Origin: Alphaproteobacteria bacterium
GTDB lineage: Bacteria; Pseudomonadota; Alphaproteobacteria; Rs-D84
Reading direction: 5' to 3'
DNA: 55,430 bases
Assembly: GCA_009783855.1 (NCBI GenBank)
Contig: WRCO01000003.1
Span: forward strand, 1-55,430
Made by a program: the position numbers and the translations under genes. Every line of letters begins with the position of its first letter. The first letter of the stretch is position 1. The notes beneath the pieces were generated by a model. That model did no database searches, was not told the DNA's origin, and saw nothing but the letters and a program-made list of their open reading frames with translations. Of the stretch, positions 7,844-54,318 are shown piece by piece.

Positions 7844-7897
7844 TCTTTTTTCAAATCACTAATCACTGGTCACTTGTAACTGATTAATGGTTGAAGG

Positions 7898-8992
7898 TCA
7901 CTCCATTCTTACCGGCACGCCGTTTTCTATTTTTCGCAACACAGTGGGCGCGTCGATAATTCCGCCCGGACATATCGTGACAACGCCGATAACCGTTTCC
8001 AATCCGTCGGTCTTTTCAAGGATAGCCCGCGCCGCGGCGGTATTGTCCGCCGCATCCGGATTTGCTTCGAACGCCGTTGTCAGGATTTGCAGAATCGCGT
8101 GCATATATTCCGCAAAGTTCGTCGCGGTGCTTCCGACAAGCCGTTCGTACCTTTCTGTGAAATCGTCGTTGCCGGATGCCGTGGCGACATAATACAATCC
8201 TTCGGCCAATGTCTTGTCGCCAAGAAACGAAAACGAATCCGCGCTGAAAAGCGGGATTGTTATGCCCGACTGATGATACTGGCGCAGAAATATTGCGATT
8301 TCCGGTTCGGAAAATTGGGGAAGAATCATGTCGGGCGTATCATTCGCGATACGTTGCAGTATCGGGCGGAAATCACGCTCGCCCTTGTTTACCGGATAGA
8401 CGCTTTTAATTTCTATCCCGGTTCCTTTGATTTCGGATTTCAATGCGTTGATGAACACCTGTTGGCCGGATACAATTTCATGGACAAGAGTTATTGTTCC
8501 CACGCCAAGATTTTGCAAATGCCGGATTACCGCCTGCGCTTGTCCGCGGGCCGACGATATGATTATAAAATTATATTCGCCGCGCGCAACGTCCGGGTCT
8601 ATGGATGCCGAAATATGGATGACGCCGGCGCGTTCTGCAATCGGGTTTGTCGGGCCGCCGATATGCGACGCAAGGGATACAATCGCGTTGACCCGGTTGG
8701 CGGCAATCATTTTATGCGCGACGGATGCGGCCACGCCGGATTGAAAACGATTGTCTTCGAATATGATTTCGTATCTGTAATGCGCCGCGTCCGCATCAAA
8801 GTCTTCGAAAAACAACCTTACGCCATGGCGAGCGGCTTTGCCAAAGTGTGCGGAATCGCCGGACATCGGCATGGAGAACCCAATCCGGATAACGGGCCGC
8901 GGATCGGATGACATATATGCCGGTCGGATTGCGAAAAATGCAAAAGCGGAGATAACAGCGATGCCGGCGATTATCAAAAGTTTTTTGCTCAT
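7898..8992 (-). CDS. ABC substrate-binding protein (paralog 2, close to paralog 1)
   Basis: RIGFSMPMSGDSA..G; strong similarity to 6713..7807. Confidence 0.85.
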   Translation of the reverse strand: MSKKLLIIAGIAVISAFAFFAIRPAYMSSDPRPVIRIGFSMPMSGDSAHFGKAARHGVRLFFEDFDADAAHYRYEIIFEDNRFQSGVAASVAHKMIAANRVNAIVSLASHIGGPTNPIAERAGVIHISASIDPDVARGEYNFIIISSARGQAQAVIRHLQNLGVGTITLVHEIVSGQQVFINALKSEIKGTGIEIKSVYPVNKGERDFRPILQRIANDTPDMILPQFSEPEIAIFLRQYHQSGITIPLFSADSFSFLGDKTLAEGLYYVATASGNDDFTERYERLVGSTATNFAEYMHAILQILTTAFEANPDAADNTAAARAILEKTDGLETVIGVVTICPGGIIDAPTVLRKIENGVPVRME

Positions 8993-9010
8993 ACCATCCT
9001 CTTTATCAGT

Positions 9011-9028
9011 TGCCTACCATAGTAGACA
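9011..9028. repeat. 18-bp palindrome copy 2 (TGCCTACCATAGTAGACA)
   Basis: Upstream of paralog 2; period-7 array at 9037-9085. Confidence 0.8.
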
Positions 9029-9075
9029 TCTTTTTTATAATTACTAATCACTGGTAACTGATTAATGATAACCGA

Positions 9076-10206
9076 TTACTGGTCACCAGCCGGCGCAACC
9101 GACCGGCCGTCACGTATTTCGCGGATTACGGTGGGGACAAGGATGTTGCCGTCGTCGTCCGTCCTCAGCGTCGCCAATGATGTCCGAAGTCCTGCGGTGT
9201 TTCTTATCATGGATTCCGCGACCGCTTCGGGTGTCGGCTTTTCGCCGGGTGCGGCGTCCGCCATTTCCCACGCATTGACAAGTATGTTAATCATCATGTA
9301 CGTCGCTTCGGCGTAATAGGTGTCCGTCCGCCCAAGGACGCCTCCAAACCGGTCAAGCCATTCGGGCGTGGCGGTCACATCCCGAACTTCCCACATTCCT
9401 TCGACCAATGATTTATCGGTGACAAGTCCGATGGTCTGTTGTCCGGTCACGGGAATATTCAAATTATTCCGCCGCATGGCTGTGATAAACCTGTCGGAAT
9501 CCGGCGGCATTAATTGCATAACCACCATGCCCGCGCCGGATTGCCTTATCTGTCTTACCATCACGTCGAAATTCTGTTCGCCCGGACGAATGCGGAAGGT
9601 CGGCCCAAGCGTAAGAGTATCGCGTGCGTTCGCCTGTCGCACGATTGTATCGTACAGTATGGTGTTGGCGACGTCGCTTCCTCCGATGACCGCAATTTTA
9701 TTTACGCCCTGGGCCTGCACACGGGAAAGAAGTTTATCAATCGCCGCTTCCATATCAAGGGTCAGGCGAAAGGCAAAATCACCGTCGCTTGTCGCCGGGT
9801 CAAGCGTATAGTTCAGATTGATAATCCGATGCCTGTTGATAATCGGATTGATGGCAAGCGCCATACCCGAAAAAATACTTACAACCGCGTCGGCCCTTTG
9901 ATTTCGCGCAAAGCGGTGCATTATGGTTACTGCCCGCGCGGTCGAAAATTGCACGTCTTCCCAAATTATCTCATACCTGTATTTCGCGTCCGGATTTTGC
10001 GCTTTCCATTCCGGCATGAACGCGTCGATAACCCGGCGGTTGACATCGCCAAACGCCGCCATGTCGCCCGTCATCGGATACAGCATGACAACCCTGACGA
10101 CAGGCCGGCCATCATCGGATTTGTCCGCGCCGCGCGGTACAAGCACAAACGCCGAAACAGCCGCCGCAACCAGCCCAATAATTATCAAAAGTTTTTTCTT
10201 TCTCAT
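9076..10206 (-). CDS. ABC substrate-binding protein (paralog 3, divergent)
   Basis: PMTGDMAAFG, EDVQFS; N-terminal TM anchor. Confidence 0.8.
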   Translation of the reverse strand: MRKKKLLIIIGLVAAAVSAFVLVPRGADKSDDGRPVVRVVMLYPMTGDMAAFGDVNRRVIDAFMPEWKAQNPDAKYRYEIIWEDVQFSTARAVTIMHRFARNQRADAVVSIFSGMALAINPIINRHRIINLNYTLDPATSDGDFAFRLTLDMEAAIDKLLSRVQAQGVNKIAVIGGSDVANTILYDTIVRQANARDTLTLGPTFRIRPGEQNFDVMVRQIRQSGAGMVVMQLMPPDSDRFITAMRRNNLNIPVTGQQTIGLVTDKSLVEGMWEVRDVTATPEWLDRFGGVLGRTDTYYAEATYMMINILVNAWEMADAAPGEKPTPEAVAESMIRNTAGLRTSLATLRTDDDGNILVPTVIREIRDGRSVAPAGDQ

Positions 10207-10231
10207 TATGTTTCCTTTTTCATTTTATCCG

Positions 10232-10256
10232 TTGTCCTTACTACTATAAGGGACAA
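10232..10256. repeat. Palindrome variant copy 3 (TTGTCCTTACTACTATAAGGGACAA)
   Basis: Upstream of paralog 3; GTTGTTA/GCTGTTA array at 10261-10282. Confidence 0.6.
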
Positions 10257-10284
10257 GCCAGTTGTTAGCTGTTAGTTAGCTTAT

Positions 10285-11163
10285 CTAAACTCTGCATTCC
10301 GTCCGCTTCGGCTTCTGCGTAAATATGCCCCGTGGGCGAAGCCACAACAGGATGATAAATATCACAAACGCCACCAAATCGCGCCATTGCGACGCAAACA
10401 TCCAAACGCCGATATTCTCCGCGCCGGCAAGCACCATCGCGCCAAGATAAGCGCCAAGGATGGTCGGGCCGCCGATGATGGCCGCAATCATTCCTTTGAA
10501 TAAGATATTAAAGCCCATAAGCGGCTCCATACCCGTATCGTATCCGACGCACAATCCGTACGCGCCAAGAATTGCGCCGGCAATCACGGACACAATCATC
10601 ACCACGCGCGGGACATTTATGCCGACAAGGTTTGCCAAAGGCGGGCTGTCGTGAATCGCGCGAATGGTCTTGCCGAAAAACGTGCGTTGCAACATGAACG
10701 ACAATCCGCCAAGCACTATGGCGGCGAATCCGACTATGACAACCTGGGTCGTTGGGATTCCGGCGACCCTTGTGAAATCAAGCGCACGGCCAAGCGTTTG
10801 ATATTGCGGCCCGAACGCAAGATGAATCGCGCTTTCGAAAATTGTATAAAGCCCAAGCGATATGATAAGCAAAACCATCGGTGACGCGCCGGACGCGCGC
10901 ACGGGTTTGAAAATAAACGCTTCAAGCGCCCATGTGAATGCCGCGACAAGCACGATTACAATCGGCCATGCCGCCGTCACGCCGAATACCGGTATCAATG
11001 CGAACCCAAGATACGCGCCAAGCGCCACCGACGCGCCAAGGGTAAGGTTGAAAAACGGCGACACCCAATGCATAAGGCGGAACGCCATCGCCATAAGCGC
11101 GTACCCGCTGCCGATGATTAATGTATTAAGAAGCAATTGTTGTAACATTATTTGAATATCCAT
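10285..11163 (-). CDS. livH: Branched-chain amino acid ABC permease (LivH-like)
   Basis: Multi-TM protein with FGKTIRAIHDS...LANLVGINV and AAIIGG. Confidence 0.85.
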   Translation of the reverse strand: MDIQIMLQQLLLNTLIIGSGYALMAMAFRLMHWVSPFFNLTLGASVALGAYLGFALIPVFGVTAAWPIVIVLVAAFTWALEAFIFKPVRASGASPMVLLIISLGLYTIFESAIHLAFGPQYQTLGRALDFTRVAGIPTTQVVIVGFAAIVLGGLSFMLQRTFFGKTIRAIHDSPPLANLVGINVPRVVMIVSVIAGAILGAYGLCVGYDTGMEPLMGFNILFKGMIAAIIGGPTILGAYLGAMVLAGAENIGVWMFASQWRDLVAFVIFIILLWLRPRGIFTQKPKRTECRV

Positions 11164-11174
11164 AGTGGTCGGTG

Positions 11175-12296
11175 TTAGTGATAGGGTGTAGATGCTTTAT
11201 CCTGTTTACCGCCTCCACTACCACCTACCACTTTTCCATTTTCGATTCTGTACATAAGCATTGCCGATTGAAACGCGCCCGCATCCGTTATATCGTAATG
11301 CCCGGCGACGCCGTAATACGCGCGCATCCGTCGCATCTGTGCCGAAATATCTTCGGCGGATGGAATGTCGTCGGAATCAGACGCGGCGCGTTCGACAGCG
11401 GCGGCAAAGACCCGGACGCTGTCATAAAAATACGCCGCGAAGAAAGTCGACGCGCTTCTCATCCGTTCGACGAATTCGGTATTTCCCTGTGAATAGCTTA
11501 AGGTATAAACGCCTTCGAACAAAGAAAAGTCGTCCGTCACATTGGGCAGATTGAAATATACTTTTGTCCCGCCGACCTGTTGCATGTGCAATTCGCGCGC
11601 CAAGATATTAAGTCCCGGCGGCGAGGCGGAAATCACAATCAAATCCGGATTCCATTCCTTCATACGCCGGACAAGCATTGCGAAGTCGCGGTCGCCAAGA
11701 TTGCTGTCGAACCGTCGGACTTCCCCGGGCAGCTTGCCGTCCAGGCCTTCAAGAAGTTCAAGGGTGGTCCCGGAAATCTGAAACGCCAATGCAATCCTTT
11801 CGGGGTTTCTTGAATGTGCGAATTCCGAAAGTCCGCGGGTAATTTCGGCCGGCGTGGGAAAGAATGTAAAATTATAAACACCGTCAAGAACTTCGTGAAC
11901 GGGCGTGCCGTGAAGACCGATAAGCCCGTGCTGGATAATAAGCGGCGCTGTTGCGAACGCGCTTGGCGAAAACGCGGTTACAAGGGCGGAAACCCTGTTC
12001 CGCGCAATCATCTTGTTCGCGATGGAGACCGCTTGCCTTGCCTGATGTTGGTTGTCGTCGAAAATCGCCCGGTATGCGAACCGGTTGTCCGGATTGCCGT
12101 TGATGTCGGATATGGCGAAATTAATGGCGCGCCGGATGGCGTCCCCCATGTGTGCCATATCTCCGGAAAGCGGTAAAATCGCGCCGATTGTGACGACGGG
12201 CCGCGGGTCGGAAAATCGGTGCGCCGGACGAAGCACAAAAAGCGCCGCCACCGCAATTGCAATCACACCGATGATTATTAAAGCTTTTCTTTTCAT
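11175..12296 (-). CDS. ABC substrate-binding protein (paralog 4)
   Basis: TIGAILPLSGDMAHMG, FDDNQHQ. Confidence 0.85.
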   Translation of the reverse strand: MKRKALIIIGVIAIAVAALFVLRPAHRFSDPRPVVTIGAILPLSGDMAHMGDAIRRAINFAISDINGNPDNRFAYRAIFDDNQHQARQAVSIANKMIARNRVSALVTAFSPSAFATAPLIIQHGLIGLHGTPVHEVLDGVYNFTFFPTPAEITRGLSEFAHSRNPERIALAFQISGTTLELLEGLDGKLPGEVRRFDSNLGDRDFAMLVRRMKEWNPDLIVISASPPGLNILARELHMQQVGGTKVYFNLPNVTDDFSLFEGVYTLSYSQGNTEFVERMRSASTFFAAYFYDSVRVFAAAVERAASDSDDIPSAEDISAQMRRMRAYYGVAGHYDITDAGAFQSAMLMYRIENGKVVGGSGGGKQDKASTPYH

Positions 12297-13375
12297 TTTA
12301 TTTCTCCGTCTTTTATGTATCTGATAATGCTTCCTGGGAAAATCGTGCCTTTGTCGTTCATGGAAAGCCGGCCGTTTATGCCGTCGTATTCCGCGATTAT
12401 GCCAAGCAGGCGTTCGCGCAGATTTGTCGTATCCCGGCCGTATTTTTCAAACAGGCGGTGTATAATCATAACGTTGTCAAAGCTTAACGCGGCCGAAGCG
12501 TCCGCCACCCGGCCGCCGAATCGCACGGCGTATTTTTCGGCGAATTCTTCCGTACCGCTTGGAATATCGACAAAGAAATCATCGTTGAAAAGCGTCTTGT
12601 CCGGCGTGAACGCAAACAGATACAAAGTCGTAATTCTTCCCCGGAATCCCTGTTGACGCAATTCCCGCGCAAAAAGCGACAGTATAGGTTCATAAGTGTA
12701 CATCATGACGACGTCGGGATTTGTGGCGACGACGCGCGCGGCTTCCTGTCTGAATTGCCGTTCCGCGGGCGATAATCTTTCCGTTCCGACGATGCGTATG
12801 CCGGCTGTTTCCAATTCGGGCGTAAGGGCTCTCATGACCGCTTCGCCCGCCAAATGTTGAAACGATACAAGGGATATGGTTTCAAACCCCCGCTGTTTCA
12901 AATATCCGGCAAGCTGCCGCGACACCGAATCCAAATCGGAATTATGGTTAAACGTGGATTCGTTGTCGGACACGGCATAATCGGCGGAAAGCGAAATATG
13001 CAGAATCTCGTCGCGGCGAACCCTGTCCCGCAATGCGTGTCCCATTGCCGCGTTGCCGGACAACAGGACGTCTATTCTGTCGACATTTCGCAGCTTTTCA
13101 TAAACGACGATGCCGCGGGCCGCATCGAATCCGTCCTCTATCACGACACGGTATCTGTATCTGTTGTCCGGGTTGGAATTTATTTTTTCAAGCGCCATGA
13201 TAATGCCGGACCTTGCGGATGTTCCGATAACGGCGTTATTGCCGGACAGCGGCAGAATCGCGCCGATTGTGATAACGGGCCGCGCATCCGACGACAGATA
13301 CGCCGGACGCATCGCGACAAACGCCAAAGCGGCGATTGCAATCACGCCAATCATAATTAAAAGTTTTTTTCTCAC
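12293..13375 (-). CDS. ABC substrate-binding protein (paralog 5)
   Basis: TIGAILPLSGNNAVIG; GTG start after AAGGAG. Confidence 0.85.
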   Translation of the reverse strand: MRKKLLIMIGVIAIAALAFVAMRPAYLSSDARPVITIGAILPLSGNNAVIGTSARSGIIMALEKINSNPDNRYRYRVVIEDGFDAARGIVVYEKLRNVDRIDVLLSGNAAMGHALRDRVRRDEILHISLSADYAVSDNESTFNHNSDLDSVSRQLAGYLKQRGFETISLVSFQHLAGEAVMRALTPELETAGIRIVGTERLSPAERQFRQEAARVVATNPDVVMMYTYEPILSLFARELRQQGFRGRITTLYLFAFTPDKTLFNDDFFVDIPSGTEEFAEKYAVRFGGRVADASAALSFDNVMIIHRLFEKYGRDTTNLRERLLGIIAEYDGINGRLSMNDKGTIFPGSIIRYIKDGEIK

Positions 13376-13392
13376 ACCACTCCTTTACTGTT

Positions 13393-13410
13393 TGTCTACT
13401 ATAGTAGACA
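13393..13410. repeat. 18-bp perfect palindrome copy 4 (TGTCTACTATAGTAGACA)
   Basis: Upstream of paralog 5; period-7 array at 13412-13460. Confidence 0.9.
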
Positions 13411-13446
13411 ACTGTTAACTACGGCCCGTTGCCTGCTAACTACTGG

Positions 13447-14535
13447 CTAATAACTGACAAGCACCGGCCTGTTGTTCTCGATTCTATGCAGAACCGCGGA
13501 TGACAAGAACGCGCCGTGGTCTGTTATGTCTATGTGTCCGGCGACGCCTTCGTGCCGGCGAATTCTTTTCATCGCGGCCGAAATATCTTCGGCGGACGGT
13601 ATGGCGTCGGAATCGGACGCCGCCGTTTCGACAGCCTTTGCAAAAACAACTATGCCGTCATAAAAAAGAGGCGAGAAGAAAGTCACGGAACTTCCAATAC
13701 GTTCGATGAATTCGTCGTTTCCCTGGGATACGTCCACGCTGTACGCCCCTTCGAACAAAGAAAAATCGTCCGTCAATCCGACAAGCCCAAAGTGCAGCTG
13801 TGTCGCGCCGACCCGTTGCAAGTGCATTTCGCGGCCGAAAATATTCAACGCCGGCGGATTTATGCCGACGAAAATCAAATCCGGTTGAAATTCATTGATA
13901 CCGCGGACCATCATTGCGAAATCGCGGTCGCCGTCGTTGCTGTCGAATCTTCGGACTTCGCCCGGCAGATTTCCATGCAACCCTTCAAGAAGTTCAATGG
14001 TCGTTCCCGCGGGTTGAATCGACAAGGCAACCCTTTCGAAATTTCTTGATTTCGCGAATTCCGAAATGCTGCGGATAAATTCGGTCGACGCAGGCTGGAG
14101 AGTAAAATTATACACGCCGTCACGCGCGCCTATAACACCCGTGCCGTGAAGACCGATAATCTGGTTCCGGACAAGTACAGGCGCCGTCGCGTAAGCGTTT
14201 GCGGAAAACAGAGTCACCATGGCGGAGACCCTGTGCCTTGAAATCATCTTGTTGGCGATGGGCACCGTAAGTCTGGTCTGCATTTGATTGTCTTCGAAAA
14301 CCGCGTGGTATACGAACCGGTTGTCCGGGTTTTTATTGACGTCTTCGATTGCAAAGTCGATGGCTTTTCGTATCATCTGTCCCATGTGCGCCATATTTCC
14401 GGAAAGCGGAAGAATCACGCCAATCCGCACCACAGGCCGCGGGTCGGACGGCATATAAGCCGGCCGAAGGGCAAACAGCCCCGCCGCAAGAATTGCAGCC
14501 ACCCCAGCAATTATCAAAAGTTTTTTTCTTTTCAT
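13447..14535 (-). CDS. ABC substrate-binding protein (paralog 6, close to paralog 4)
   Basis: RIGVILPLSGNMAHMG, FEDNQMQ. Confidence 0.85.
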   Translation of the reverse strand: MKRKKLLIIAGVAAILAAGLFALRPAYMPSDPRPVVRIGVILPLSGNMAHMGQMIRKAIDFAIEDVNKNPDNRFVYHAVFEDNQMQTRLTVPIANKMISRHRVSAMVTLFSANAYATAPVLVRNQIIGLHGTGVIGARDGVYNFTLQPASTEFIRSISEFAKSRNFERVALSIQPAGTTIELLEGLHGNLPGEVRRFDSNDGDRDFAMMVRGINEFQPDLIFVGINPPALNIFGREMHLQRVGATQLHFGLVGLTDDFSLFEGAYSVDVSQGNDEFIERIGSSVTFFSPLFYDGIVVFAKAVETAASDSDAIPSAEDISAAMKRIRRHEGVAGHIDITDHGAFLSSAVLHRIENNRPVLVSY

Positions 14536-14554
14536 AATATTCCCTTATGTTTGT

Positions 14555-14572
14555 TGTCTACTATAGTAGACA
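14555..14572. repeat. 18-bp perfect palindrome copy 5
   Basis: Upstream of paralog 6; period-7 array at 14581-14625. Confidence 0.9.
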
Positions 14573-14622
14573 TCTTTTTTATAATTGCCAATCACTGGTC
14601 GCTGATTACTGGTAACTGATAA

Positions 14623-15360
14623 CTACACCCCAAGATACGCTTCCTGTACTTGTTTGTTTTTTAATACCGTCGCGGGCTTTCCGGCCGCAAGCAATTGCCC
14701 GTGGTCAAGCACGATGATGTTATCACACAACCGGCGGATAAGTCCGATATTATGTTCGATAATCACAAGTGTTTTGCCCATGCCGCGAAGTTCGGAAAGT
14801 AATTCGACAATCTGTTCTATTACCGCGGGAAATAATCCCGTAAAAGGTTCGTCCAAAAGATAGACATCCGCATCCTGAATCATCGCGCGGCCAAGTTCCA
14901 AAAGCTTGCGCTGACCATACGAAAGCGATTCCGCCAAATCGTCCCGATGTTCGGACAGATGGATTTTTTTCAAAATAACCTCAACACGATGCAGGGGCGT
15001 GCCGCGTGCGCCCATAAATTCGCAAAGACCTGAAACTATTCCCGTATTCGCAATCGCAAGCAAAAGATTGTCGCGAACAGACATTTGATTTACCAATCGC
15101 CCGTCTTGGAAAGTCCGCGCGATTTTAAGCCCGCGCAATGCCGTCGGCTCAATCTGTTCGAATTTTTCGCCGCCGATAATAATTTCTCCGCAATCCGGCA
15201 CAAGCGTTCCGGTAAAAAGGTTCATAAGCGTGGTCTTGCCACTTCCGTTCGGTCCGATAAGTCCCGTGGCGACGCCCACAGGAATTGCAACGGACAGCCC
15301 GTCAACCGCGCGCAGCCCGCCGAAAGTTTTTGTTAAATGTTTTACTTCAATTGCGTTCAT
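14623..15360 (-). CDS. livG: Branched-chain amino acid ABC ATP-binding protein (LivG-like)
   Basis: FGGLRAVDGLS, GPNGSGKTT, ARTFQ, LSYGQRKLLELGRA, VQEAYLG. Confidence 0.88.
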   Translation of the reverse strand: MNAIEVKHLTKTFGGLRAVDGLSVAIPVGVATGLIGPNGSGKTTLMNLFTGTLVPDCGEIIIGGEKFEQIEPTALRGLKIARTFQDGRLVNQMSVRDNLLLAIANTGIVSGLCEFMGARGTPLHRVEVILKKIHLSEHRDDLAESLSYGQRKLLELGRAMIQDADVYLLDEPFTGLFPAVIEQIVELLSELRGMGKTLVIIEHNIGLIRRLCDNIIVLDHGQLLAAGKPATVLKNKQVQEAYLGV

Positions 15361-15373
15361 TTTCCGTTTTTCC

Positions 15374-15423
15374 CGCAGGGGCGCAATATCTTGGGCCCCG
15401 GGTCTTCGATATTCGACCCCTAC
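15374..15423. repeat. GTAG-type REP-like hairpin between livM and livG
   Basis: Minus strand GTAGGGGTCGAATATC...GATATTGCGCCCCTGC; it supplies the livM TAG stop. Confidence 0.65.
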
Positions 15424-16286
15424 ATCCTATATTTGCCCAAAAATCCCTTTGGCTTGAATACCATCATAATTATCAATGTCGCGCCGTAAATCACCTGTTG
15501 CAACTGTGCCGCGATTGTATGGGGCAGGCCAAGAAACCGCAAAACTTCGGGCAAAGAGATAAGGATAATCGCGCCAAGCACCGCTCCACGGCTTGATGAA
15601 AGTCCGCCGATGATAATGATTGTAAAAAGGAATATGCTTTCATGCACTTGGAACGTTGACGGGTCAATAAAGGCAATATAGCTTGCAAACAATCCGCCCG
15701 CAATTCCGGCGATGGCGGCGCCAAGTATAAAGACAAGGCTTTTCATCTTCGCCACCGGGTATCCCAAAACTGCGGCAAGCTGTTCGTCTTCGCGGATGGC
15801 TTTAAGGCCACGGCCGAACGACGACCGGTCGAACCATTCATAAAGCGCGAATACGATTGCAAGAACAACAAGGCACAACATAAAATATTCGGCGTTGCTT
15901 TCGATGACGCTGCCGAATATTTCCGGCTTTGGAATTCCAAAGATGCCAAGCGGCCCGCGGGTCAAATCTTTCCAGTTCATCAAAAGGGAAAAAACTATGA
16001 TTGAAAGCCCGGCGGAAACGATGGCGTAATAATCTCCGCGCCACCTTGCAAGGATTCGTCCGACAACCCCCGCCGCCGCGATGTTTATAATCACGCCAAG
16101 GAACAGCGCCGGAAAAAACCCAAGCCCAAGCGCGGTCATCCCAAGCGCCGTCGCATACGCGCCGATTCCGTAAAACGCCGCCTGGGCAAGCGATAACATC
16201 CCCGCCATTCCGACGACCATATTCAACGACAGCGCAAGCACGCCGTAAATAGAAAACAAAATCCCAAGATTTAACAGATATTCCAT
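15420..16286 (-). CDS. livM: Branched-chain amino acid ABC permease (LivM-like)
   Basis: GMLSLAQAAFYGIGAY, LTRGPLGI, FGRGLKAIREDE. Likely ATG 16286 within ORF 15420..16328. Confidence 0.88.
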   Translation of the reverse strand: MEYLLNLGILFSIYGVLALSLNMVVGMAGMLSLAQAAFYGIGAYATALGMTALGLGFFPALFLGVIINIAAAGVVGRILARWRGDYYAIVSAGLSIIVFSLLMNWKDLTRGPLGIFGIPKPEIFGSVIESNAEYFMLCLVVLAIVFALYEWFDRSSFGRGLKAIREDEQLAAVLGYPVAKMKSLVFILGAAIAGIAGGLFASYIAFIDPSTFQVHESIFLFTIIIIGGLSSSRGAVLGAIILISLPEVLRFLGLPHTIAAQLQQVIYGATLIIMMVFKPKGFLGKYRM

Positions 16287-16326
16287 TGCCCCGCGATTAT
16301 AGGGGCAAAGCCACGGGGAACTCAAC

Positions 16327-16354
16327 AAAAAAACGCCCCGGCGGGGCGTTTTTT
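16327..16354. terminator. Rho-independent terminator
   Basis: A-run, CGCCCC-GGC-GGGGCG hairpin, T-run. Confidence 0.8.
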
Positions 16355-17442: not shown

Positions 17443-17659
17443 TTCCACTCTCCTTTTTTGTTCCTTGGAAACATAGCCTTTTTTGTGCCGCTGCCGCAAG
17501 TAAAAATATGAATAAAAGAAAACTTGCATTCGTTGAAGTTATTTGCTATGTTAATCCCGTCCAGTATACGTGAAATTAAAAAATCCCGTACGTGAAAATT
17601 CGCGCCGCGTCACTTTCGTCGCATGTTTTTCGTACGCTTTTTCAATAAGGATAAATAAA

Positions 17660-19249
17660 ATGAATATGTATCAATTGCTTGAAAAGACAGCAAAAAAATT
17701 CCCAGAAAACGTGTTTTTGGCACGCGAAGGGCTAACCTATCCGGAATTCATCGAATTGGTGAAATCCCGCGCGGCATCGTTTGCCGCCCAGGGTGTAAAG
17801 AAAGGCGACACGGTCGGCCTTCTTGCTCCGAATATCATGGAATGGCCGCTTTCGCTGTTTGCGGTGTGGTATCTTGGCGGCCGCGTGCTGTTGCTTGACA
17901 CCAACCTTACTTCGTTTGAATACGACAATATGGCGGAATTGACGGGTTGCAAACTTGTTGTTGCGACGAAGTCGTTCTTTTATAAATCTGCGAATTTCAA
18001 ATTCTATGATATTACGACAAAAGACGCGGTGCTTCGGGACGGCGCAAAAGTTCCGCCCCCGGCGGATGTAAAAAGCGACGACGTCGCGACGCTGTCGTTT
18101 ACATCGGGTTCGACGGGGATTCCGAAAATCGTGCCGCTGACGCACTTTAACCTGACCAAATGCGCGGCGTCGCTGCAGGATTTCGAATATGCGTTCAAAG
18201 ACACGGATATCGTGTACGGGTTTCTGCCGTTGTACCATATATTCGGGTTTGCGGCCGGATTCTTGTTGACGCTGCATTTTGGCGCATCCATATTGCTGCA
18301 GCCGACGATTGACCCGAAAATGATACTGGCGGACTTCAAGGAATTCCGCCCCCATGTCATCCCGGCCGTGCCGCGGGTGTTCGAACTGTTCCGCGGAAAA
18401 ATCCTGGACGGATTGAAACAGAAAAGACTGTTGGGATTTGCAAGTTTTGTATTGCGGAACAACAAGCTGTTGTCCGCTATCGGCCTGGGCTTTCTGGTGC
18501 GGAAAATCCAGGGCAAGATTCTGGACGTGTTCGGCGGACGCGCGCGATTGCTGATTGCGGGCGGCGCGGCGACCAAACCGGAAGTGGAAGATTTTTATCA
18601 AAATCTGGGGCTTTTGTTCACCCAAGGATACGGCCTTACCGAAACGGTCGGGCCCATCTGCGGTTCGCACCCGCGACCGGGCCGCCAGCCGTATTCGTTC
18701 GGCGGTCCGCTGTCGGGCAACGAATGCGAAATGCGCAACGTGAATACCGAAGGTGTCGGAACCCTGTGGGTGCGCGGGAACAACGTGTTCAGCGGATACC
18801 TTAACAACCCCGAAGCCACCGCCGAAGTTTTCGACGAAAACGGATGGTTTAATACCGGCGACTTGGTGTCCAAGGATAAAAACGGCGAATACCGTTTCCG
18901 CGGACGCAAGAAACAAGTCATCGTGCTTGATTCCGGCAAAAACGTATATCCCGACGAACTTGAAGGATTGTACATAACCCTTCCGGGAGTCAAGAACGTT
19001 GCGGTGTTTGAACACGAAATAAACGGCAAGACCATTGCATACGCCGTGTTCAGCGTCGAAGACAACGTGGATTTGCAATCGCTTGGCGTGTTTATTGCGG
19101 GCGCCAATAAAAAGATTGCAAGTTATAAATGGGTGACGCATTTTGCGATAACGACGGACGAACTTCCGCTTACATCGACAAAGAAAGTGCGCCATCACGT
19201 CGTTCGCGAAAAACTTATCGCGGGCGAATATCCGAAGCGCAAAGAATAA
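17660..19249 (+). CDS. Long-chain fatty-acid--CoA ligase (AMP-binding)
   Basis: FTSGSTGIPK, QGYGLTET, GWFNTGDL, GKNVYPDELE. Likely ATG 17660. Confidence 0.9.
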   Translation: MNMYQLLEKTAKKFPENVFLAREGLTYPEFIELVKSRAASFAAQGVKKGDTVGLLAPNIMEWPLSLFAVWYLGGRVLLLDTNLTSFEYDNMAELTGCKLVVATKSFFYKSANFKFYDITTKDAVLRDGAKVPPPADVKSDDVATLSFTSGSTGIPKIVPLTHFNLTKCAASLQDFEYAFKDTDIVYGFLPLYHIFGFAAGFLLTLHFGASILLQPTIDPKMILADFKEFRPHVIPAVPRVFELFRGKILDGLKQKRLLGFASFVLRNNKLLSAIGLGFLVRKIQGKILDVFGGRARLLIAGGAATKPEVEDFYQNLGLLFTQGYGLTETVGPICGSHPRPGRQPYSFGGPLSGNECEMRNVNTEGVGTLWVRGNNVFSGYLNNPEATAEVFDENGWFNTGDLVSKDKNGEYRFRGRKKQVIVLDSGKNVYPDELEGLYITLPGVKNVAVFEHEINGKTIAYAVFSVEDNVDLQSLGVFIAGANKKIASYKWVTHFAITTDELPLTSTKKVRHHVVREKLIAGEYPKRKE

Positions 19250-19358
19250 CGGAAGAGGGCGCAAGAACAACAATCCCGGCGACTTGGTTTTCGCCGGGAT
19301 TGTTATTGCTATCAAGGTCGTAAAATGATAGAATACATGCAAATTGGGGGGGGACAGG

Positions 19359-20549: not shown

Positions 20550-20601
20550 TTCATAGGGGGGCGGGGCGGATTTCCACGCGCCCCTAAACCACCGGCACCA
20601 G

Positions 20602-20645: not shown

Positions 20646-20650
20646 TTGTT

Positions 20651-41034: not shown

Positions 41035-41071
41035 AATGTATGATGTAAAATGAAACAAAGAGCGTGATTCA

Positions 41072-43313: not shown

Positions 43314-43341
43314 GCGCCTTCCTTTTTTTTGATAAATAGAC

Positions 43342-43457
43342 AAAAAAGACACCCAGAAAGCAGGTGTCGGGAAGTTAGTCAATCAAGTGATAATGATTTC
43401 GTCGCCTTTGACCTTTCGGCCTGTTGTATAGCGACGACTTCCCGACCGAAGTCGGGA
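43342..43457 (-). promoter_or_regulatory. Candidate attenuator/riboswitch leader
   Basis: Terminator GACACC-N9-GGTGTC-T6 overlapped by alternative helices; see findings. Confidence 0.5.
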
Positions 43458-43607
43458 CGTTGTTAGAATCGTATCACTGGGCGACTAAACCCGTTCTACT
43501 AACTTTGTCCTTTGCCCTTGTTTCCAGGGGCGCTGTTATTAAAGCACAAAAAGTTAATTAATCCAATGAAAAATACGGCGATATAAAAAACCGGCTTTCG
43601 CCGGCTG

Positions 43608-44474: not shown

Positions 44475-44543
44475 CTCTATTGTCCATTTTATAGTTGACA
44501 AAAGAGATTATAAGGAAATATTTGTATTTTGCAAGTATTTTAA

Positions 44544-44597
44544 TAGGGGCGCCCACCGCAATCTTTGATTGCGTCGGGGTCCGGGTTTGCGCCCCCA
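44544..44597. repeat. REP-like GGGGCGC...GCGCCCC hairpin
   Basis: TAGGGGCGC...CGCAATC-TTT-GATTGCG...GCGCCCC; related to 32961-32990. Confidence 0.6.
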
Positions 44598-44610
44598 CGA
44601 TTGATGGCTT

Positions 44611-45852
44611 TTACTTAAAACTGTACCCCATTTCCAAATGATTCGGGTCATAGGTCCCGTTCGCGATGGCAAGAGTATCTTCGACGATAACAAGTTCTTC
44701 GTTCGTCGGAATCATGAAGACCTTTACCTTTGAATCCGGCGCGGATATGACGCTTTCGCCCGCGCCAATGCGCGACAGCGCACCGTTGTTGGCATCATTG
44801 TCAAGCTTTATGCCCAATTCATCCAACCCGTCGCACACCAATGCGCGCACCCGTTCGTCGTTTTCGCCGACGCCCGCCGTGAATACAATCGCATCGACGC
44901 GGCCAAGTTCCGCCATAAAGCCGCCGATGTATTTTTTGATATTGTTGGCTTCCACATCCAAAGCAAGGCGGCAGCAATCGTTGTTCGCCATATTGTTCCA
45001 AACATCGCGATGGTCGATGTGGCCTTCGGACAGGCCCAAAATCCCCGATTGTTTGTTAAGGTGTGTCTCAACCTGTTTCGCGGTGATGCCAAGGCGGTCC
45101 ATGACATAGAATATGATGCCTGCGTCTATATCGCCGGCGCGGGTGCTCATGGTCAATCCGGACAGCGGGGTAAGCCCCATGGACGTGTCGATGGATTTTC
45201 CGCCGCGAATGGCGGCCGCCGACGCGCCGGACCCGATATGAAGGGTGATAAGGTTGACTTCGTTTGCCGGCTTGCCAAGCATTTTCGCCGCGCGTTTGGA
45301 TACGTACAAATGCGACGTGCCGTGGAATCCGTAACGCCGGACGCCAAGTTCGCGGTACCACGCCGCCGGGACGGCATAACGGTACGCGTAATCCGGCATC
45401 GTTTGGTGGAATGCGGTGTCGAATACGGCGACTTGGCGCGCATTGGGCAACAATTGCTTTGCAACGACAATACCCATAAGGTTCGCGGGATTATGAAGCG
45501 GCGCAAGCGGCGACAATTCTTCAATGGTCCGGATTACTTCGTCTGTGATTTCGGCGGAACAATTGAACTTGTCGCCGCCGTGCACGACGCGGTGTCCGAC
45601 CGCCGTGATGTCGTTAAGGTCGATTGACGCATCGCGCAGCATGGTCATAACGATGCCAAGCGCTTCGTTATGGTTGTGCATTGGAACTTCTTTCTTTTCT
45701 TTTGTTCCGTCCGCCTGTTTTTGTGTGATAAAAGAATCGGATTCGCCGATTTTTTCAACCGTGCCGGATACTTTTACTGATTTGGAATCCGCGTCGAAAA
45801 CTTGATATTTAAGTGAACTGCTGCCACAGTTCAGCGCAAGAATATATGCCAT
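44611..45852 (-). CDS. ackA: Acetate kinase
   Basis: LNCGSSSLKY, GHRVVHGG, FDTAFH, YGFHGTSH, FTAGVGEN, PTNEE. Confidence 0.97.
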   Translation of the reverse strand: MAYILALNCGSSSLKYQVFDADSKSVKVSGTVEKIGESDSFITQKQADGTKEKKEVPMHNHNEALGIVMTMLRDASIDLNDITAVGHRVVHGGDKFNCSAEITDEVIRTIEELSPLAPLHNPANLMGIVVAKQLLPNARQVAVFDTAFHQTMPDYAYRYAVPAAWYRELGVRRYGFHGTSHLYVSKRAAKMLGKPANEVNLITLHIGSGASAAAIRGGKSIDTSMGLTPLSGLTMSTRAGDIDAGIIFYVMDRLGITAKQVETHLNKQSGILGLSEGHIDHRDVWNNMANNDCCRLALDVEANNIKKYIGGFMAELGRVDAIVFTAGVGENDERVRALVCDGLDELGIKLDNDANNGALSRIGAGESVISAPDSKVKVFMIPTNEELVIVEDTLAIANGTYDPNHLEMGYSFK

Positions 45853-45976
45853 GTTTTGTCCTTTCTTTTGTGTCAGTGGCGGGGATTATAACAATATTTG
45901 ATTTGAATTCAATCTTAAAATTTAAGCTTTTGTTTTTTGTTTTCTTGTCTATAATTCAATTACGGACCACGGATAA

Positions 45977-48037
<2,061 letters not shown>

Positions 48038-48072
48038 TTGTTAGCTGTCAGTTTTTATGCTATAATATCCGC

Positions 48073-50978
<2,906 letters not shown>

Positions 50979-51004
50979 TATCCTGTAAAGTAAAAGGAGC
51001 GCAC

Positions 51005-51943
51005 ATGGCAAAAAAACAAATCGAAGTAATCGACATGGGCGGCGCGAAAACCGTCGCGAAGAAAACCAGCTGGGTAAAAAAAGTAAAGATAGTATTTCTT
51101 ATCATATCCATCCTGTGGCTTGGGTTTGCTTATTGGGCGCCGTTGCATGTGAAAGACGTGTACGGCACGCAGATTAAAAAATCCATCGTCGTGTCGATGT
51201 TCTTTGATTTACAGCGCAATATAAATGAACAATATGAAAAACTGCTTCGCCTTGCGGCGCGGAATATCAATCTGGAAAAACCCATCGCGGTCGCGATTGA
51301 TAAGGTAAAAATCGCCGAAACCGGCGTCGCCCGCGTGGAACAGGCAACGGCCCAGGCACAGCAGGCGACAGCAACCGCCGGCCGCATTACCGGCATCGCG
51401 GGGCGGGTCGGCGTGAATGTCGGCGCGGCGGACAGGGCAGTCGACGCGGCGGCCGGAGCGGTCGCCAAAGTCGACGACCAGGCGCAAATCATCAACAAAC
51501 AGCTTGACCGGGTAAAGGGCGATTTGACCCGCATCGCGCAAACGGAAATCGACCGCGCGATTGATGAACAGCTTAAAGCAATTCTGGACCAGCATACCGG
51601 GCTTGGCACGACGATGCTTACCGATTACGGCATCCGGCATGTGATGCCGTGGCGCCCGTCGACATGGCCGGTTACGAACAAGATTTACGCCGATTTGGAA
51701 CGCTCGAACCTGTCCGCGATACAAAGTCTGACCGGCATGGTCGACAGATATTTCGGATATGTCGCGTGGGGTCTTGTGTTTGCGGCGTGGGGTGTGGCGT
51801 TGCTTGTTTGGTTTATGGTTTTGGGCAAGGTAAGGAAATTGTTGAAACCGTTCCTTGTCTGCCCGCGTTGCGGCCATACGTACGCCGACAAGCGTACGGC
51901 CTTGATGCTTCTTAAAGTTTTCCAACCGTGGTCGTGGATATAA
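51005..51943 (+). CDS. Hypothetical membrane protein with coiled coil and C-terminal CxxC
   Basis: ATG 51005 after AAGGAG; two TM segments; CPRCGH. Confidence 0.75.
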   Translation: MAKKQIEVIDMGGAKTVAKKTSWVKKVKIVFLIISILWLGFAYWAPLHVKDVYGTQIKKSIVVSMFFDLQRNINEQYEKLLRLAARNINLEKPIAVAIDKVKIAETGVARVEQATAQAQQATATAGRITGIAGRVGVNVGAADRAVDAAAGAVAKVDDQAQIINKQLDRVKGDLTRIAQTEIDRAIDEQLKAILDQHTGLGTTMLTDYGIRHVMPWRPSTWPVTNKIYADLERSNLSAIQSLTGMVDRYFGYVAWGLVFAAWGVALLVWFMVLGKVRKLLKPFLVCPRCGHTYADKRTALMLLKVFQPWSWI

Positions 51944-52097
51944 GGTGGTTGGTGCCTGGTGATTCGTGGCTGGTGTTGGTGGCTCGTAGGGGCGCAAAGC
52001 ATACGTCCCCATTGTTGTCCACTATAGTGGACAACTTTTAACTGATTACGGACCACCAGCACAGGCGACGAATCACCAGCACCAGCCACCAGTAACA
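51944..52097. repeat. ~150-bp imperfect inverted repeat centred on palindrome copy 6 (52016-52033)
   Basis: Left GGTGGTT/GGTGCCT/GGTGATT heptamers mirror the right CACCAGC arm; core GTTGTCCACTATAGTGGACAAC; GTAGGGGCG REP at 51986-52010. Confidence 0.8.
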
Positions 52098-52143
52098 AAT
52101 AAAACTTGATTTCGGCAAAAATATATGCCAAAATCAGACCCGT

Positions 52144-52220
52144 GCGAGCGTAGCTCAGTTGGCTAGAGCGCAACCTTGCCAAGGTTGAGGTCGAGGGTTC
52201 GAGCCCCTTTGCTCGCACCA
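52144..52220 (+). tRNA. tRNA-Gly(GCC)
   Basis: Cloverleaf, anticodon loop TTGCCAA, discriminator A73, encoded CCA. Confidence 0.96.
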
Positions 52221-52222
52221 CA

Positions 52223-52345
52223 CTTCGCGTCTGCGACGCTTCGTGTGGCTTCGCCGCACGAAATGCGGAGTGGCAGAGTCCAACGAAGCCTTGGCGAAGT
52301 TGGATGAGAGGCGAAGTAGTGCCCGCCGAAGCCCAAAGGGCGAAG
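52223..52345. repeat. REP-like cluster downstream of tRNA-Gly
   Basis: CTTCGCGTCTGCGACGCTTCG, CCAACGAAGCCTTGGCGAAGTTGG and GCCCGCCGAAGCC...GGCGAAGGCCGGGC. Confidence 0.7.
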
Positions 52346-52460
52346 GCCGGGCCGATACAAGGGAACACAAATGCTTATGGTATCAAAAAAATTCAAATAG
52401 AACGCGCCACGAAAATTTCGCGGGCGCTTTTGGCGTCCGTTTTTTAATAAAGGAAATGAA

Positions 52461-52697
52461 ATGACAGTAAAAACACCCGAACTTGTAATGTGCGGATATC
52501 ACGGCTGCCACGTGGTCCCGCCGGCCGAAGGCTGTAAATGCACGGGCTGCACTTCATACACCGCGCGTTGCGAAAACTGTGCAGAGCCGAGAAAACGCGC
52601 GGACAAACAATTCGCAAACGACGATTTTCATTTTGAAATCCGCAAGTGCCAGGAATGTAAAAAACGCGCGGCCGACATGATGAACACGGGACGTTGA
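52461..52697 (+). CDS. Small Cys-rich hypothetical protein
   Basis: ATG after AAGGA; ten Cys including CxxC pairs. Confidence 0.6.
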   Translation: MTVKTPELVMCGYHGCHVVPPAEGCKCTGCTSYTARCENCAEPRKRADKQFANDDFHFEIRKCQECKKRAADMMNTGR

Positions 52698-52725
52698 ATT
52701 AAAAATAATGCAAAGGAGTATTAAA

Positions 52726-54195
52726 ATGCCAGAACAGACAACCGCCATATCGACGAACGAATTAGAGGCACGGCTGCAAAAAATGGAAAATATTCGCGCG
52801 CGCGATGGTGTCGTATGGAAAGACAAATACGAACGCACATCCACAATCGCTGAAGCGCGCGGATTGAAAGACGGAACCGCTGTGCGTTTGCCGGGTCGCG
52901 TTATCGCGCTTCGCTGGTTGGGTAAGCTTATGTTCGGCCGCATTTACGACATGGACGGCGAAATCCAATTCTCACTGTCGCTTGCCGACATCGGCGAAGA
53001 ACAGTTCAAGTTCTTGAAAACCAACTTGGACATGGGTGATTTTATCGGTGTTGCGGGCGAACTGTATACCACAAGCGCGGGCGAATTGACCGTCAAGGGC
53101 ACGGAAGTCATCGTATTGGCAAAGGCTTTGCGTCCGCTGCCGGAAAAATATCACGGCCTTACCGATACTGAAACAAGATATCGCCAGCGTTACCTGGATA
53201 TCATCGCCAATAAAGATTCGCGCGATGCTTTGATTGGTCGATTTCGCATGACCAAAAATTTACGCGATTTTATGACCGGCCACAACTTTTTGGAGATCGA
53301 AACGCCAATATTGCAAAGCGTCGCATCCGGCGCGGCGGCAAAGCCGTTCACGACGCACCACGATGCTTTGGATACGGATTTCCAGTTGCGCATTTCACCG
53401 GAATTGCCGTTGAAGCTTGCCATCGCCGCCGGATTTGACCGCGTGTTTGAAATCGCAAAAGATTTCAGAAACGAAGGGATGAGCCCGATGCACCTTCAAG
53501 AATTCACGATGATTGAATGGTACGCCGCGTATTGGGATTTTCGCGACAATATGAAATTCACGTGGGAATTGATACAGCATTTGATACGCGAATCCCGTGG
53601 AACGTTACAGATTGAATACCAAGGAACAATGATGGATTTCAGCAAGCACGACATGCTTGATTATACCGCAAAGATGAACGAGCTGTTCGGGTGCAACGTG
53701 TTGGAATTCGACTGTGCGGATGCGCTTCGCGCGCAATTAATAAAGGACAAAATGTTCACCGCAGACGAATTGGAACCGTATGTATCGGTGCCGACACTGG
53801 TCGATTTTGTTTACAAACGGAAAATTCGCCCGAATATAATCCAGCCGACGTTCCTGTACAACTATCCGGCGTACATGGTGCCGCTTGCGCGCAGGAATGA
53901 TGAAGACGAACGGCGCATCGATATGTTTCAACTGCTGGTAGATGGCGCGGAGCTTTGCAAGGGTTATTCGGAACTTGTGAATCCGATACAACAGATGGAA
54001 GCATTCGAAGAACAGGCGCGAAACATGTCCGCAGGTGATGAAGAAGCGTTCCGTCCGGATACGGATTTTGTAAAAGCGATGGAGCACGGCATGCCGCCGC
54101 AATCCGGCGTGGGTATCGGCCTTGACAGATTGGCCAGTTTTATATTCGACTTGCCAAGCCTGCGGGATACCGTACTGTTTCCGATGGTGAAATAA
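52726..54195 (+). CDS. lysS: Lysine--tRNA ligase, class II
   Basis: OB-fold, PEKYHGL.D.ETRYRQRYLD, IETP, FRNEG, EFTMIE, GIGLDRL. ATG 52726. Confidence 0.96.
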   Translation: MPEQTTAISTNELEARLQKMENIRARDGVVWKDKYERTSTIAEARGLKDGTAVRLPGRVIALRWLGKLMFGRIYDMDGEIQFSLSLADIGEEQFKFLKTNLDMGDFIGVAGELYTTSAGELTVKGTEVIVLAKALRPLPEKYHGLTDTETRYRQRYLDIIANKDSRDALIGRFRMTKNLRDFMTGHNFLEIETPILQSVASGAAAKPFTTHHDALDTDFQLRISPELPLKLAIAAGFDRVFEIAKDFRNEGMSPMHLQEFTMIEWYAAYWDFRDNMKFTWELIQHLIRESRGTLQIEYQGTMMDFSKHDMLDYTAKMNELFGCNVLEFDCADALRAQLIKDKMFTADELEPYVSVPTLVDFVYKRKIRPNIIQPTFLYNYPAYMVPLARRNDEDERRIDMFQLLVDGAELCKGYSELVNPIQQMEAFEEQARNMSAGDEEAFRPDTDFVKAMEHGMPPQSGVGIGLDRLASFIFDLPSLRDTVLFPMVK

Positions 54196-54223
54196 TGGTG
54201 GCTGGTGGTTGGGGACTCGTAAT

Positions 54224-54294
54224 TAAAGGTTGTCCACTATAGTGGACAACCTTTATTTCATGCGTTAATTAATGATTGTCTAATATATTAGACA
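54224..54294. repeat. Palindrome copies 7 and 8 between convergent lysS and smpB
   Basis: 32-bp perfect palindrome at 54224-54255 and TGTCTAATATATTAGACA at 54277-54294, flanked by heptamer arms. Confidence 0.9.
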
Positions 54295-54318
54295 GCCGTA
54301 CCAGCCACGACCCACAAA

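Follow-up and report, generated by a model that had tools for sequence, protein, structure and literature searches.

Heptanucleotide arrays at gene junctions of a termite-gut alphaproteobacterial lineage, one family of which brackets a portable four-helix-bundle gene

The stretch of DNA analysed here (55,430 nt, hereafter the window) comes from an Alphaproteobacteria bacterium of the GTDB lineage Rs-D84 (assembly GCA_009783855.1, contig WRCO01000003.1, positions 1-55,430). Its gene junctions host degenerate tandem arrays with a 7-bp period, and about half of the arrays have an inverted copy nearby, with which they form long hairpins. One array family constitutes the ends of a portable cassette, which carries a gene encoding a four-helix-bundle protein of the PF05635 family. 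Judged from ligA, the host is closest to genome bins of uncultured Alphaproteobacteria or "Rickettsiales" found in the termite gut, the nearest ligA product being 76% identical at the protein level; rumen and human-gut bins, Candidatus Enterousia among them, come next.

The gene of the cassette (28853-29209, minus strand, 118 aa) matches PF05635 (23S_rRNA_IVP, E 4.6e-23 in Pfam), TIGR02436 (E 2.5e-26) and PDB 2RLD (E 3.6e-30), the nearest solved structure; the family name of the product is "23S rRNA intervening-sequence protein". The ORF is enclosed by the cleanest inverted pair of the window, two 25-nt arms at 28830-28854 and 29213-29237 which are 92% complementary; inverted heptads number four to five per side. 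The low-coordinate arm, which is downstream of the gene (28830-28858; AACTAAC AACTAAC AGCTAAC AACTAAC), abuts the stop of a 121-aa gene without family match (28463-28828, plus strand), and gives the four-helix-bundle gene its TAG stop. The high-coordinate arm, which is upstream of the gene, carries three AGCTGTT units, and encodes the tail ELTANS* and hence the stop of a class-II aminoacyl-tRNA synthetase gene (29218-30582, minus strand). The whole element (28830-29237) thus sits between protein-coding genes, outside helix 25 or 45 of 23S rRNA. Homologues of the protein (67-83% identity) found in other termite-gut assemblies feature the same arms, with the AGCTAAC variant unit in the same position, and reside next to two different pseudouridine synthase genes (after one, before the other), before ftsW/rodA, and in other places; gene and arms occur together in at least four gene neighbourhoods. 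The orthologous synthetase junction of a relative (L085; loci compared are given L numbers throughout) hosts no cassette and a 25-nt terminator hairpin instead, and relative to this junction the window arm has replaced the C-terminus of the synthetase. As the same gene and arms are found in different neighbourhoods, and the L085 site is empty, the arms must be regarded as part of an inserted element, and not as repeats arisen in place. Membership in a diversity-generating retroelement (DGR) is not indicated, since no reverse transcriptase gene neighbours the cassette, and homologous cassettes have housekeeping or restriction-modification genes on either side. PF05635 proteins are related to Avd, the partner of the reverse transcriptase in DGRs, and two genes with the Mtd_N domain typical of DGR target proteins are located near ligA in the array-rich relative L085 (6392-7829).

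Bracketing by heptads is general for the PF05635 gene family. The survey covered 24 distinct gene contexts from five named phyla and metagenomic contigs, and included eight named organisms represented by plasmid records (Nostoc flagelliforme, N. punctiforme, Planktothrix, Euhalothece, Treponema, Bernardetia, Candidatus Chlorohelix and Monoglobus). The flanking period is 7 on both sides in 19 of the 24 contexts, 7 on the only available side in one, 8 in two and ambiguous in two. Flanking arrays are usually reverse complements of each other, touch the start and the stop codon of the gene, and range from 2 to more than 13 units. The units are lineage-specific (AACTAAC, AACTAGG, AATTAAT, GAGTTAG, AATGAGG, AATTAGT, ATGATTA, AATTCAA, CAATTCG, AATCCCC, ACTGGTC, AGGATGA), and those of the upstream arm resemble AAYTARN outside cyanobacteria. 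Array density is 6.8 per kb beside the PF05635 gene vs 0.33 per kb elsewhere in the same loci, a difference of approximately 20-fold. In four otherwise array-free genomes (L103, L107, L111 and L093) the sole arrays adjoin the PF05635 gene, and in 50 kb of plasmid pNPUN02 of N. punctiforme the only two strict lag-7 arrays both flank the four-helix-bundle gene. Genes of the family are often found inside restriction-modification or helicase operons, as in Monoglobus (L120), Chlorohelix (L119), Planktothrix (L115) and L122, with layouts such as hsdS|gene|hsdR, helicase|gene|N6-methylase, and gene|ResIII endonuclease. In L096 and L098-L100 (GC 0.34-0.38), contigs which we take to be Bacteroidota, the gene is located between thyA and folA, and the arms have period 8 (AAGGAATG/TTCTTAAT).

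The original prediction held that arrays with this period are spread over the whole window, and named an enrichment of lag 7 over lags 6 and 8 as its test. This enrichment is present in the window. Lags 4-12 were compared, and arrays with at least 12/14 matches were scored as strict: seven were found at lag 7, and 0-2 at each other lag, while 200 block shuffles keeping local composition yielded on average 0.19 strict lag-7 arrays, and never more than two. A relaxed scan gave 16 lag-7 arrays. Intergenic DNA (approximately 5.4 kb) shows an identity of 0.288 at lag 7, compared with 0.261 (lag 6) and 0.260 (lag 8), and harmonics appear at lags 14 and 21; in coding DNA lag-7 identity is 0.251, and period 3 is the sole signal. 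Tandem Repeats Finder, proposed as a check, returned ten rows of period 7 (14602, 26353, 28830, 29213, 31631, 35216, 38067, 45928, 45969 and 46452), and rows at multiples or near-multiples of 7 at 14594 (period 14), 26308 (21), 51948 (14) and 30875 (13, i.e. 7+6). Two other assemblies, ERZ27257304 (19.4 kb, window 35986-55430) and ERZ27257297 (9.4 kb, window 45346-54745), are 100% identical to the window, and the arrays in 35986-55430 are therefore no assembly artefacts. The excess is real, but the list of sites shrinks on inspection: no array is supported at 35294-35328, the repeat at 30872-30940 has period 13, several arms are made by only 2-3 units, and 21537, 45928 and 54339 are T-rich low-complexity stretches. 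Likewise, the claim of different units with a common period is correct between sites and between genomes, but the GCTGGTG and AACTAAC/AGCTAAC families each recur at no fewer than five sites of the window.

That arrays often come as inverted arms was borne out at seven sites or pairs (20599/20626, 26360/26393, 28830/29213, 30872-30940, 47979/48035, 51956/52047 and 54196/54290). Arms match unit by unit, variant units included, to form stems of up to 26-33 bp; in L003, ATTAACA ATTAACA GATAACA ATTAACA stands opposite its exact complement. Pairs are nearly all of the Watson-Crick type, with few G-U pairs, and neither strand folds consistently better when G-U pairs and folding energies are compared. 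Arm symmetry looks like a DNA-level property. Stop codons and protein tails are supplied by arrays because hairpins begin at, or within, the last codons of genes. This had been noted for the ligA tail and for the AGDQ* and LVSY* tails of two binding proteins, to which the ELTANS* tail of the synthetase can be added. Some arrays directly precede start codons, and those located within genes are confined to variable stretches, namely a loop and a linker of ligA and the signal peptide of lptE.

The gene ligA provides the best view of how arrays behave in time. In most relatives a -10 box is found 6-8 nt before the ATG, and the gene appears leaderless; the window (ACGGATA-type array at 45961-45985, plus strand) and L012 both have an array inserted between box and ATG. 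Extended -10 boxes (TGnTATAAT-like) located 6-8 nt before the ATG, in the absence of a Shine-Dalgarno sequence, occur also at leuS (35270-35293) and at an mrcA-like PBP (penicillin-binding protein) gene (48050-48075) of the window, and at the ligA starts of L001, L002, L003, L009, L023, L024 and L029, and leaderless mRNAs may be common in the clade. Within ligA, five CGCCTTG units (46448-46486, plus strand) fill a variable loop which is about 6 aa longer than in relatives. The array is orthologous, and equal in length, in the closest relative, L087, where GCCTCAC stands for the GCCTTGC of the window, nearly every unit differing alike, which is concerted evolution. A degenerate GCCTYRY array (47738-47772, plus strand) lies in the linker before the BRCT domain, and three perfect units are found at the same site in L087. 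Finally, a gene-less hairpin with AACTAAC-family arms (47979-48053) marks the 3' end of the gene, and encodes its tail and stop: the product reads EEFEK followed by the array-encoded tail, vs AIK* in relatives. Orthologues of this hairpin are present in L087 and L003; unit number is approximately 2 in the window, 6 in L087 and 4 in L003, the units are related but different in sequence, and the arms are complementary within each of the three.

The loci L003, L012, L023, L024, L029, L085 and L087 host 2-13 lag-7 arrays each (the richest has 13 in 22 kb), and few arrays at other lags; no lag-7 array was found in L083 or in the more distant bins examined. The excess in several relatives makes the arrays a trait of the lineage, and not of a single locus. 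Similarity of units between genomes (up to one mismatch) is 2.7% vs 2.6% after shuffling, and amounts to 8.9% within genomes, arm pairs included. Thus, across genomes the period is kept, and the unit sequence is not. A universal unit motif such as TAAC-NNN was discarded on this ground, the similarity between genomes being that expected from shuffling. A single family of MITEs (miniature transposable elements with inverted repeats) with GGTGG arms was rejected as well, since in an alignment of four such elements the arm motif alone is common.

The remaining arrays of the window are diverse. Six tandem paralogous Peripla_BP_6 solute-binding genes, interleaved with branched-chain amino-acid ABC permease and ATPase genes, occupy 6018-16328; their intergenic regions are paralogous too, and the arrays at 7846, 9030 and 14576 are thus copies, not independent events. 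The first (7846-7897; AAATCAC TAATCAC TGGTCAC TTGTAAC TGATTAA) is degenerate, and lies between two binding-protein genes, directly upstream of a palindromic box which resembles a promoter and belongs to the downstream gene. The second, a degenerate paralogue (9030-9085; CTAATCA CTGGTAA CTGATTA ATGATAA CCGATTA CTGGTCA), encodes the AGDQ* tail of the binding-protein gene at 9076-10206 (minus strand). The third (14576-14626; AATCACT GGTCGCT GATTACT GGTAACT GATAACT) gives the ABC ATPase gene at 14623-15360 (minus strand) its TAG stop. At the binding-protein junctions arrays read AATCACT just upstream of promoters. The same region hosts two members of the AACTAAC/AGCTAAC family, a single arm at 10252-10284 (CAGTTGT TAGCTGT TAGTTAG), which adjoins a TTGTCC..GGACAA palindrome, and a degenerate array at 13408-13460, which overlaps the 3' end of the binding-protein gene at 13447-14535 (minus strand), and provides its tail LVSY* and TAG stop.

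The TTGTCC..GGACAA palindrome is a lineage-wide sequence of 18-20 bp of the type TTGTCC-W2-TATA-W2-GGACAA, exemplified by TTGTCCACTATAGTGGACAA. It was identified in the window at 10233, 13393, 14555, 52016, 54231, 54277 and 55371, and elsewhere in L003 (3129), L011 (four), L026 (three), L049 (two) and L087 (4250 and 4297). It contains a -10-like TATAGT/TATAAT, the same on both strands, is found approximately 35 nt upstream of binding-protein genes, and is often located in a loop enclosed by heptad arms. A role as promoter, or as operator for a global regulator, is conceivable. Two of the larger hairpins of the window carry it. At 51944-52097, upstream of tRNA-Gly, GGTGNNT/CACCAGC arms (33 nt, 82% complementary) enclose TTGTCCACTATAGTGGACAA; at 54196-54318, between the convergent aspS-like and smpB genes, TGGTGGC/CCAGCCA arms enclose both TTGTCCACTATAGTGGACAA and TTGTCTAATATATTAGACA.

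Other hairpins resemble terminators, or adjoin them. The element which follows the autotransporter gene (20589-20652) has a 23-bp stem, 96% complementary (20599-20621/20626-20648), CACCAGC-type flanking heptads and a terminator-like GC core. The autotransporter itself is split over two plus-strand ORFs, 17570-19249 and 19344-20549, the second with the beta-domain, is overlapped by a long opposite-strand ORF without family match, and may be a frameshift or a pseudogene. At 26329-26410 a GCAATTA-type array is followed by a hairpin of AGTGTGA heptads (arms 26360-26374/26393-26407, 100% complementary), after which comes a canonical terminator. The period-13 hairpin at 30872-30940 has GGTGGCT/GTGCTGG arms, and lies between a Bax1-I-family gene and the synthetase gene. 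Arms of the GCTGGTG type (30875-30903, and other GGTGGCT arms) contain GCTGGTGG, the Chi octamer of E. coli, probably by coincidence. Single arrays were also identified in the divergent promoter region upstream of leuS (AAAGCGA, 4.6 copies, 35216-35247), and in lptE, where a TGCCTTG-type array (3.9 copies, 38064-38095, plus strand) encodes part of the lipoprotein signal peptide LCLMTCALCLTAC. The segment 1-4200 is probably a phage or other mobile-element remnant, its GC content being 0.33-0.39 vs approximately 0.52 elsewhere; it hosts a Bro-N gene, a DEAD-box helicase-like gene and ORFs without family match. Scanning the window against Rfam revealed three tRNAs and no other RNA family, and the window is without rRNA.

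Heptanucleotide arrays, inverted pairs included, have been documented in other bacteria (PMC4692102, PMC2700814, PMC4679880), and heptanucleotides are reported to be the most abundant long simple repeats in many bacterial phyla (PMC4679880; PMC4692102). Xanthomonas genomes host approximately 185 GGGAATC arrays, 70-75 of which are inverted pairs, conserved in position between species, and varying in length and sequence (PMC4692102). In Beggiatoaceae, cyanobacteria and Bacteroidetes, TAACTGA arrays often end right before start codons (PMC4679880); CTGATAA, unit of the 14576-14626 array, is a rotation of TAACTGA. In Geobacter metallireducens GGGACCG occurs in four copies at 49 sites, between and within genes, and MTYCTGA is also found in Geobacter. 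The window arrays are this known class of repeats, the tandem heptanucleotides described as short tandemly repeated repetitive (STRR) sequences or long simple sequence repeats, in a new lineage. They share with STRR-type heptamers the tandem 7-nt units (2-6 or more copies), the mostly intergenic location near start and stop codons, and the frequent occurrence as inverted pairs. They differ because many unit families coexist in one genome rather than one dominant unit, because arms are near-perfectly complementary over up to 33 bp and one pair makes the ends of a cassette, and because the host belongs to an uncultured termite-gut alphaproteobacterial lineage.

The second term of comparison is given by the intervening sequences found in the 23S rRNA of Coxiella, Leptospira and others, where a PF05635 ORF likewise resides in the loop of a long inverted-repeat stem. 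The cassette is a variant intervening-sequence element outside rRNA: it is inserted between protein genes and not in helix 25 or 45, its arms are wholly made by heptads, overlap the ends of neighbouring genes and supply their stops, and in the window complete elements are far outnumbered by gene-less copies and single arms. The intervening sequence of Coxiella has a 28-bp terminal stem cut by RNase III, and 2-3 strain-variable GACAGAT heptamers are found directly upstream of its S23p ORF, which encodes a protein of the same family (Warrier et al., PMC4990558). This is the sole link between heptamer repeats and PF05635 found in the literature, in a search of sources other than subscription journals; the Xanthomonas and Beggiatoaceae papers and their supplements hold nothing on PF05635. 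The PF05635 protein is described as a homopentameric ring in PMC4990558, which cites Lin 2006 for it, and the 2RLD entry has five chains. A match of five heptads to the five subunits was considered and dropped, the arms having from 2 to more than 13 units.

Repetitive extragenic palindromic (REP) sequences, their hairpin-forming inverted doublets (REPINs) and MITEs are also short and extragenic, located at gene ends, found as several families per genome, and more numerous than gene-carrying copies. The window elements have no fixed palindromic unit of 20-40 nt, however, and their arm sequence turns over while the period is kept. Moreover, no gene for a REP-associated tyrosine transposase (RAYT, IS200/IS605-like) was found among the window ORFs scanned, and the elements have no full-length consensus. 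Rickettsia palindromic elements are palindromic repeats of 100-150 nt and fixed sequence which insert in frame into essential alphaproteobacterial genes, and which do not exhibit a 7-nt periodicity. In-frame palindromes occur in some of the loci compared, too. In L023 (10440-10560) ligA hosts an in-frame insertion of approximately 105 nt made by nested palindromes, CTCCCCCC..GGGGGGAG and CCGAAAGACGC..GCGTCTTTCGG, which occupies the same loop as the heptad array of the window, and resembles the Rickettsia elements. Inverted heptad arms are found in the coding sequence of pseudouridine synthase genes in L088 (2029-2171, GGGCACT/CAGTGCC) and L089 (674-841, AAGGCAG/CTGCCTT), and look like hairpin elements placed in frame inside genes, the units differing between the two genomes.

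Taken together, the data favour the view that the arrays are hairpin elements of the intervening-sequence type, of which one is complete, and the rest are gene-less hairpins, single arms, or arrays lodged in tolerant protein loops. We would assign to this view a probability of roughly 0.55. The cassette and the AACTAAC family have their unit in common. Units of this family also make up the hairpin at the 3' end of ligA and the single arms at 10252 and 13408, which therefore resemble kin of the cassette devoid of the gene. If rRNA intervening sequences are a guide, the stems probably serve in processing or insulation. An element would be transcribed together with its neighbours, its arms would pair to form a stem of 20-35 bp, and the stem might then be cut by RNase III, as in rRNA, or else terminate or insulate the transcript. 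Units containing a stop (TAA in AACTAAC, TAG in its complement) would arrest ribosomes whatever their frame, 7 not being divisible by 3, which may be the reason why arrays supply stops and tails. Insertion at the end of a gene would thereby be harmless, and translation may be coupled to the next ATG without a ribosome-binding site. Unit number would shift by slipped-strand mispairing, units would be homogenized within the array, and the arms may stay complementary either through DNA-level template switching, or through selection acting on the stem. Stopping in all frames was discarded as a general rule: it fits AACTAAC/GTTAGTT and many non-cyanobacterial arms, fails for GGTGGCT and for the units of Nostoc, and is retained as a partial explanation.

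Several observations weigh against the intervening-sequence view. Most arrays of the window are not adjacent to a PF05635 gene, and the link to the cassette consists of shared architecture and, for one family, of a shared unit; the GGTGGCT, GAAAAGC and GCCTTGC families have no known cassette. Units devoid of stops (GGTGGCT, the cyanobacterial AATTCAA) do not suit the idea of stops in all frames, and cleavage by RNase III is assumed from rRNA intervening sequences. The window ORFs scanned include no transposase gene, and comparison of the occupied site with the empty site of L085 revealed no target-site duplication, the sequences being too diverged for one to be recognized. Copy number is not polymorphic among the three assemblies of the same strain (the window, L081 and L082); similarly, L083 equals L084, and no close strain with other counts turned up. 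Finally, the lack of strand bias in folding makes a function at the RNA level inseparable from an origin at the DNA level.

The most serious alternative is mutation alone, according to which the replicative polymerase slips preferentially by 7 nt, and selection leaves the resulting arrays in junctions and tolerant loops, no dedicated element or protein being needed. Arms would become periodic since a stem grows fastest when an existing unit is duplicated. The notion of such slippage, credited to Mrazek et al. 2007 in PMC4679880, agrees with the reported abundance of heptanucleotides among long simple repeats in many phyla (PMC4679880, PMC4692102). Units unrelated between genomes, arrays placed in 5' untranslated regions, signal peptides and variable loops of ligA, and unit numbers which vary between orthologous hairpins as between Coxiella strains, are all expected under this scheme. 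Slippage of one unit is in itself insufficient, as the original prediction maintained, because units differ between sites and genomes, resemble each other between genomes no more than shuffled sequences, and yet keep the period. Mutation alone, moreover, does not predict that PF05635 genes are bracketed by arrays even in otherwise array-free genomes, or that the sole strict arrays in 50 kb of a Nostoc plasmid flank such a gene. Neither does it predict that arm sequence, and the position of a variant unit, are kept in cassettes residing in different neighbourhoods, nor that arrays occur as perfectly complementary pairs. We hold it possible, but distinctly less probable than an origin from intervening-sequence elements.

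A protein able to read the period had been invoked in the original prediction. A concrete candidate has emerged in the PF05635 protein, whose gene is bracketed by heptads in the window and in nearly all genomes examined. According to this scheme the arrays would be putative binding sites, read in a 7-nt register by an oligomeric protein, either the PF05635 pentamer or a repressor of the omega type. Omega-type ribbon-helix-helix repressors bind direct and inverted WATCACW heptads, and AATCACT arrays lie just upstream of promoters at the binding-protein junctions. The tight co-occurrence of PF05635 genes and heptad arms across phyla, the ring structure of the protein, and the fact that arm units change along with the protein lineage point the same way, although co-variation of arms and protein is also expected from joint inheritance. 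This reading is made unlikely by the presence of at least six unit families in 55 kb with one PF05635 gene, and by arms of 2 to more than 13 units, which match no fixed number of subunits.

Templated addition, also put forward in the original prediction, would imply a telomerase-like or reverse-transcriptase repair process which copies a 7-nt template repeatedly at breaks. The constant period, the replacement of the ligA loop array by a different sequence of unchanged length, and the kinship of PF05635 to Avd might be seen in its favour. A single template is at odds with the many units which coexist in one genome, with arms which are mutually reverse-complementary, and with arm sequences which travel along with the cassette, and no reverse transcriptase was detected in the 40 window ORFs scanned with Pfam; we regard this explanation as very improbable. 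Chance or assembly artefact may account for some of the weaker sites, such as 35294-35328 and the arms of 2-3 units, and is otherwise negligible, given seven strict arrays against 0.19 in shuffled windows, three independent assemblies identical across their shared stretches, and orthologous arrays in other species.

A broader scenario may be envisaged, in which PF05635/TIGR02436 proteins and heptanucleotide arrays are one bacteria-wide system, the protein acting in trans to bind, maintain or spread the arrays in a 7-nt register, and STRR, TAACTGA and GGGAATC repeats, as the arrays of the window, would be either ends of cassettes or their gene-less relatives. We consider this extension doubtful. 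Its interest lies in the fact that bacterial heptanucleotide repeats have been on record since 1990, and their origin and function are described as unknown in the literature, while the four-helix-bundle family is widespread and has no known function. The near-constant bracketing by heptads links the two puzzles, and may help to explain the heptamer repeats of bacteria. For the lineage described here, annotation must take into account that arrays rewrite C-termini, give stops, add 5' leaders to seemingly leaderless genes, and sit in essential genes such as ligA.

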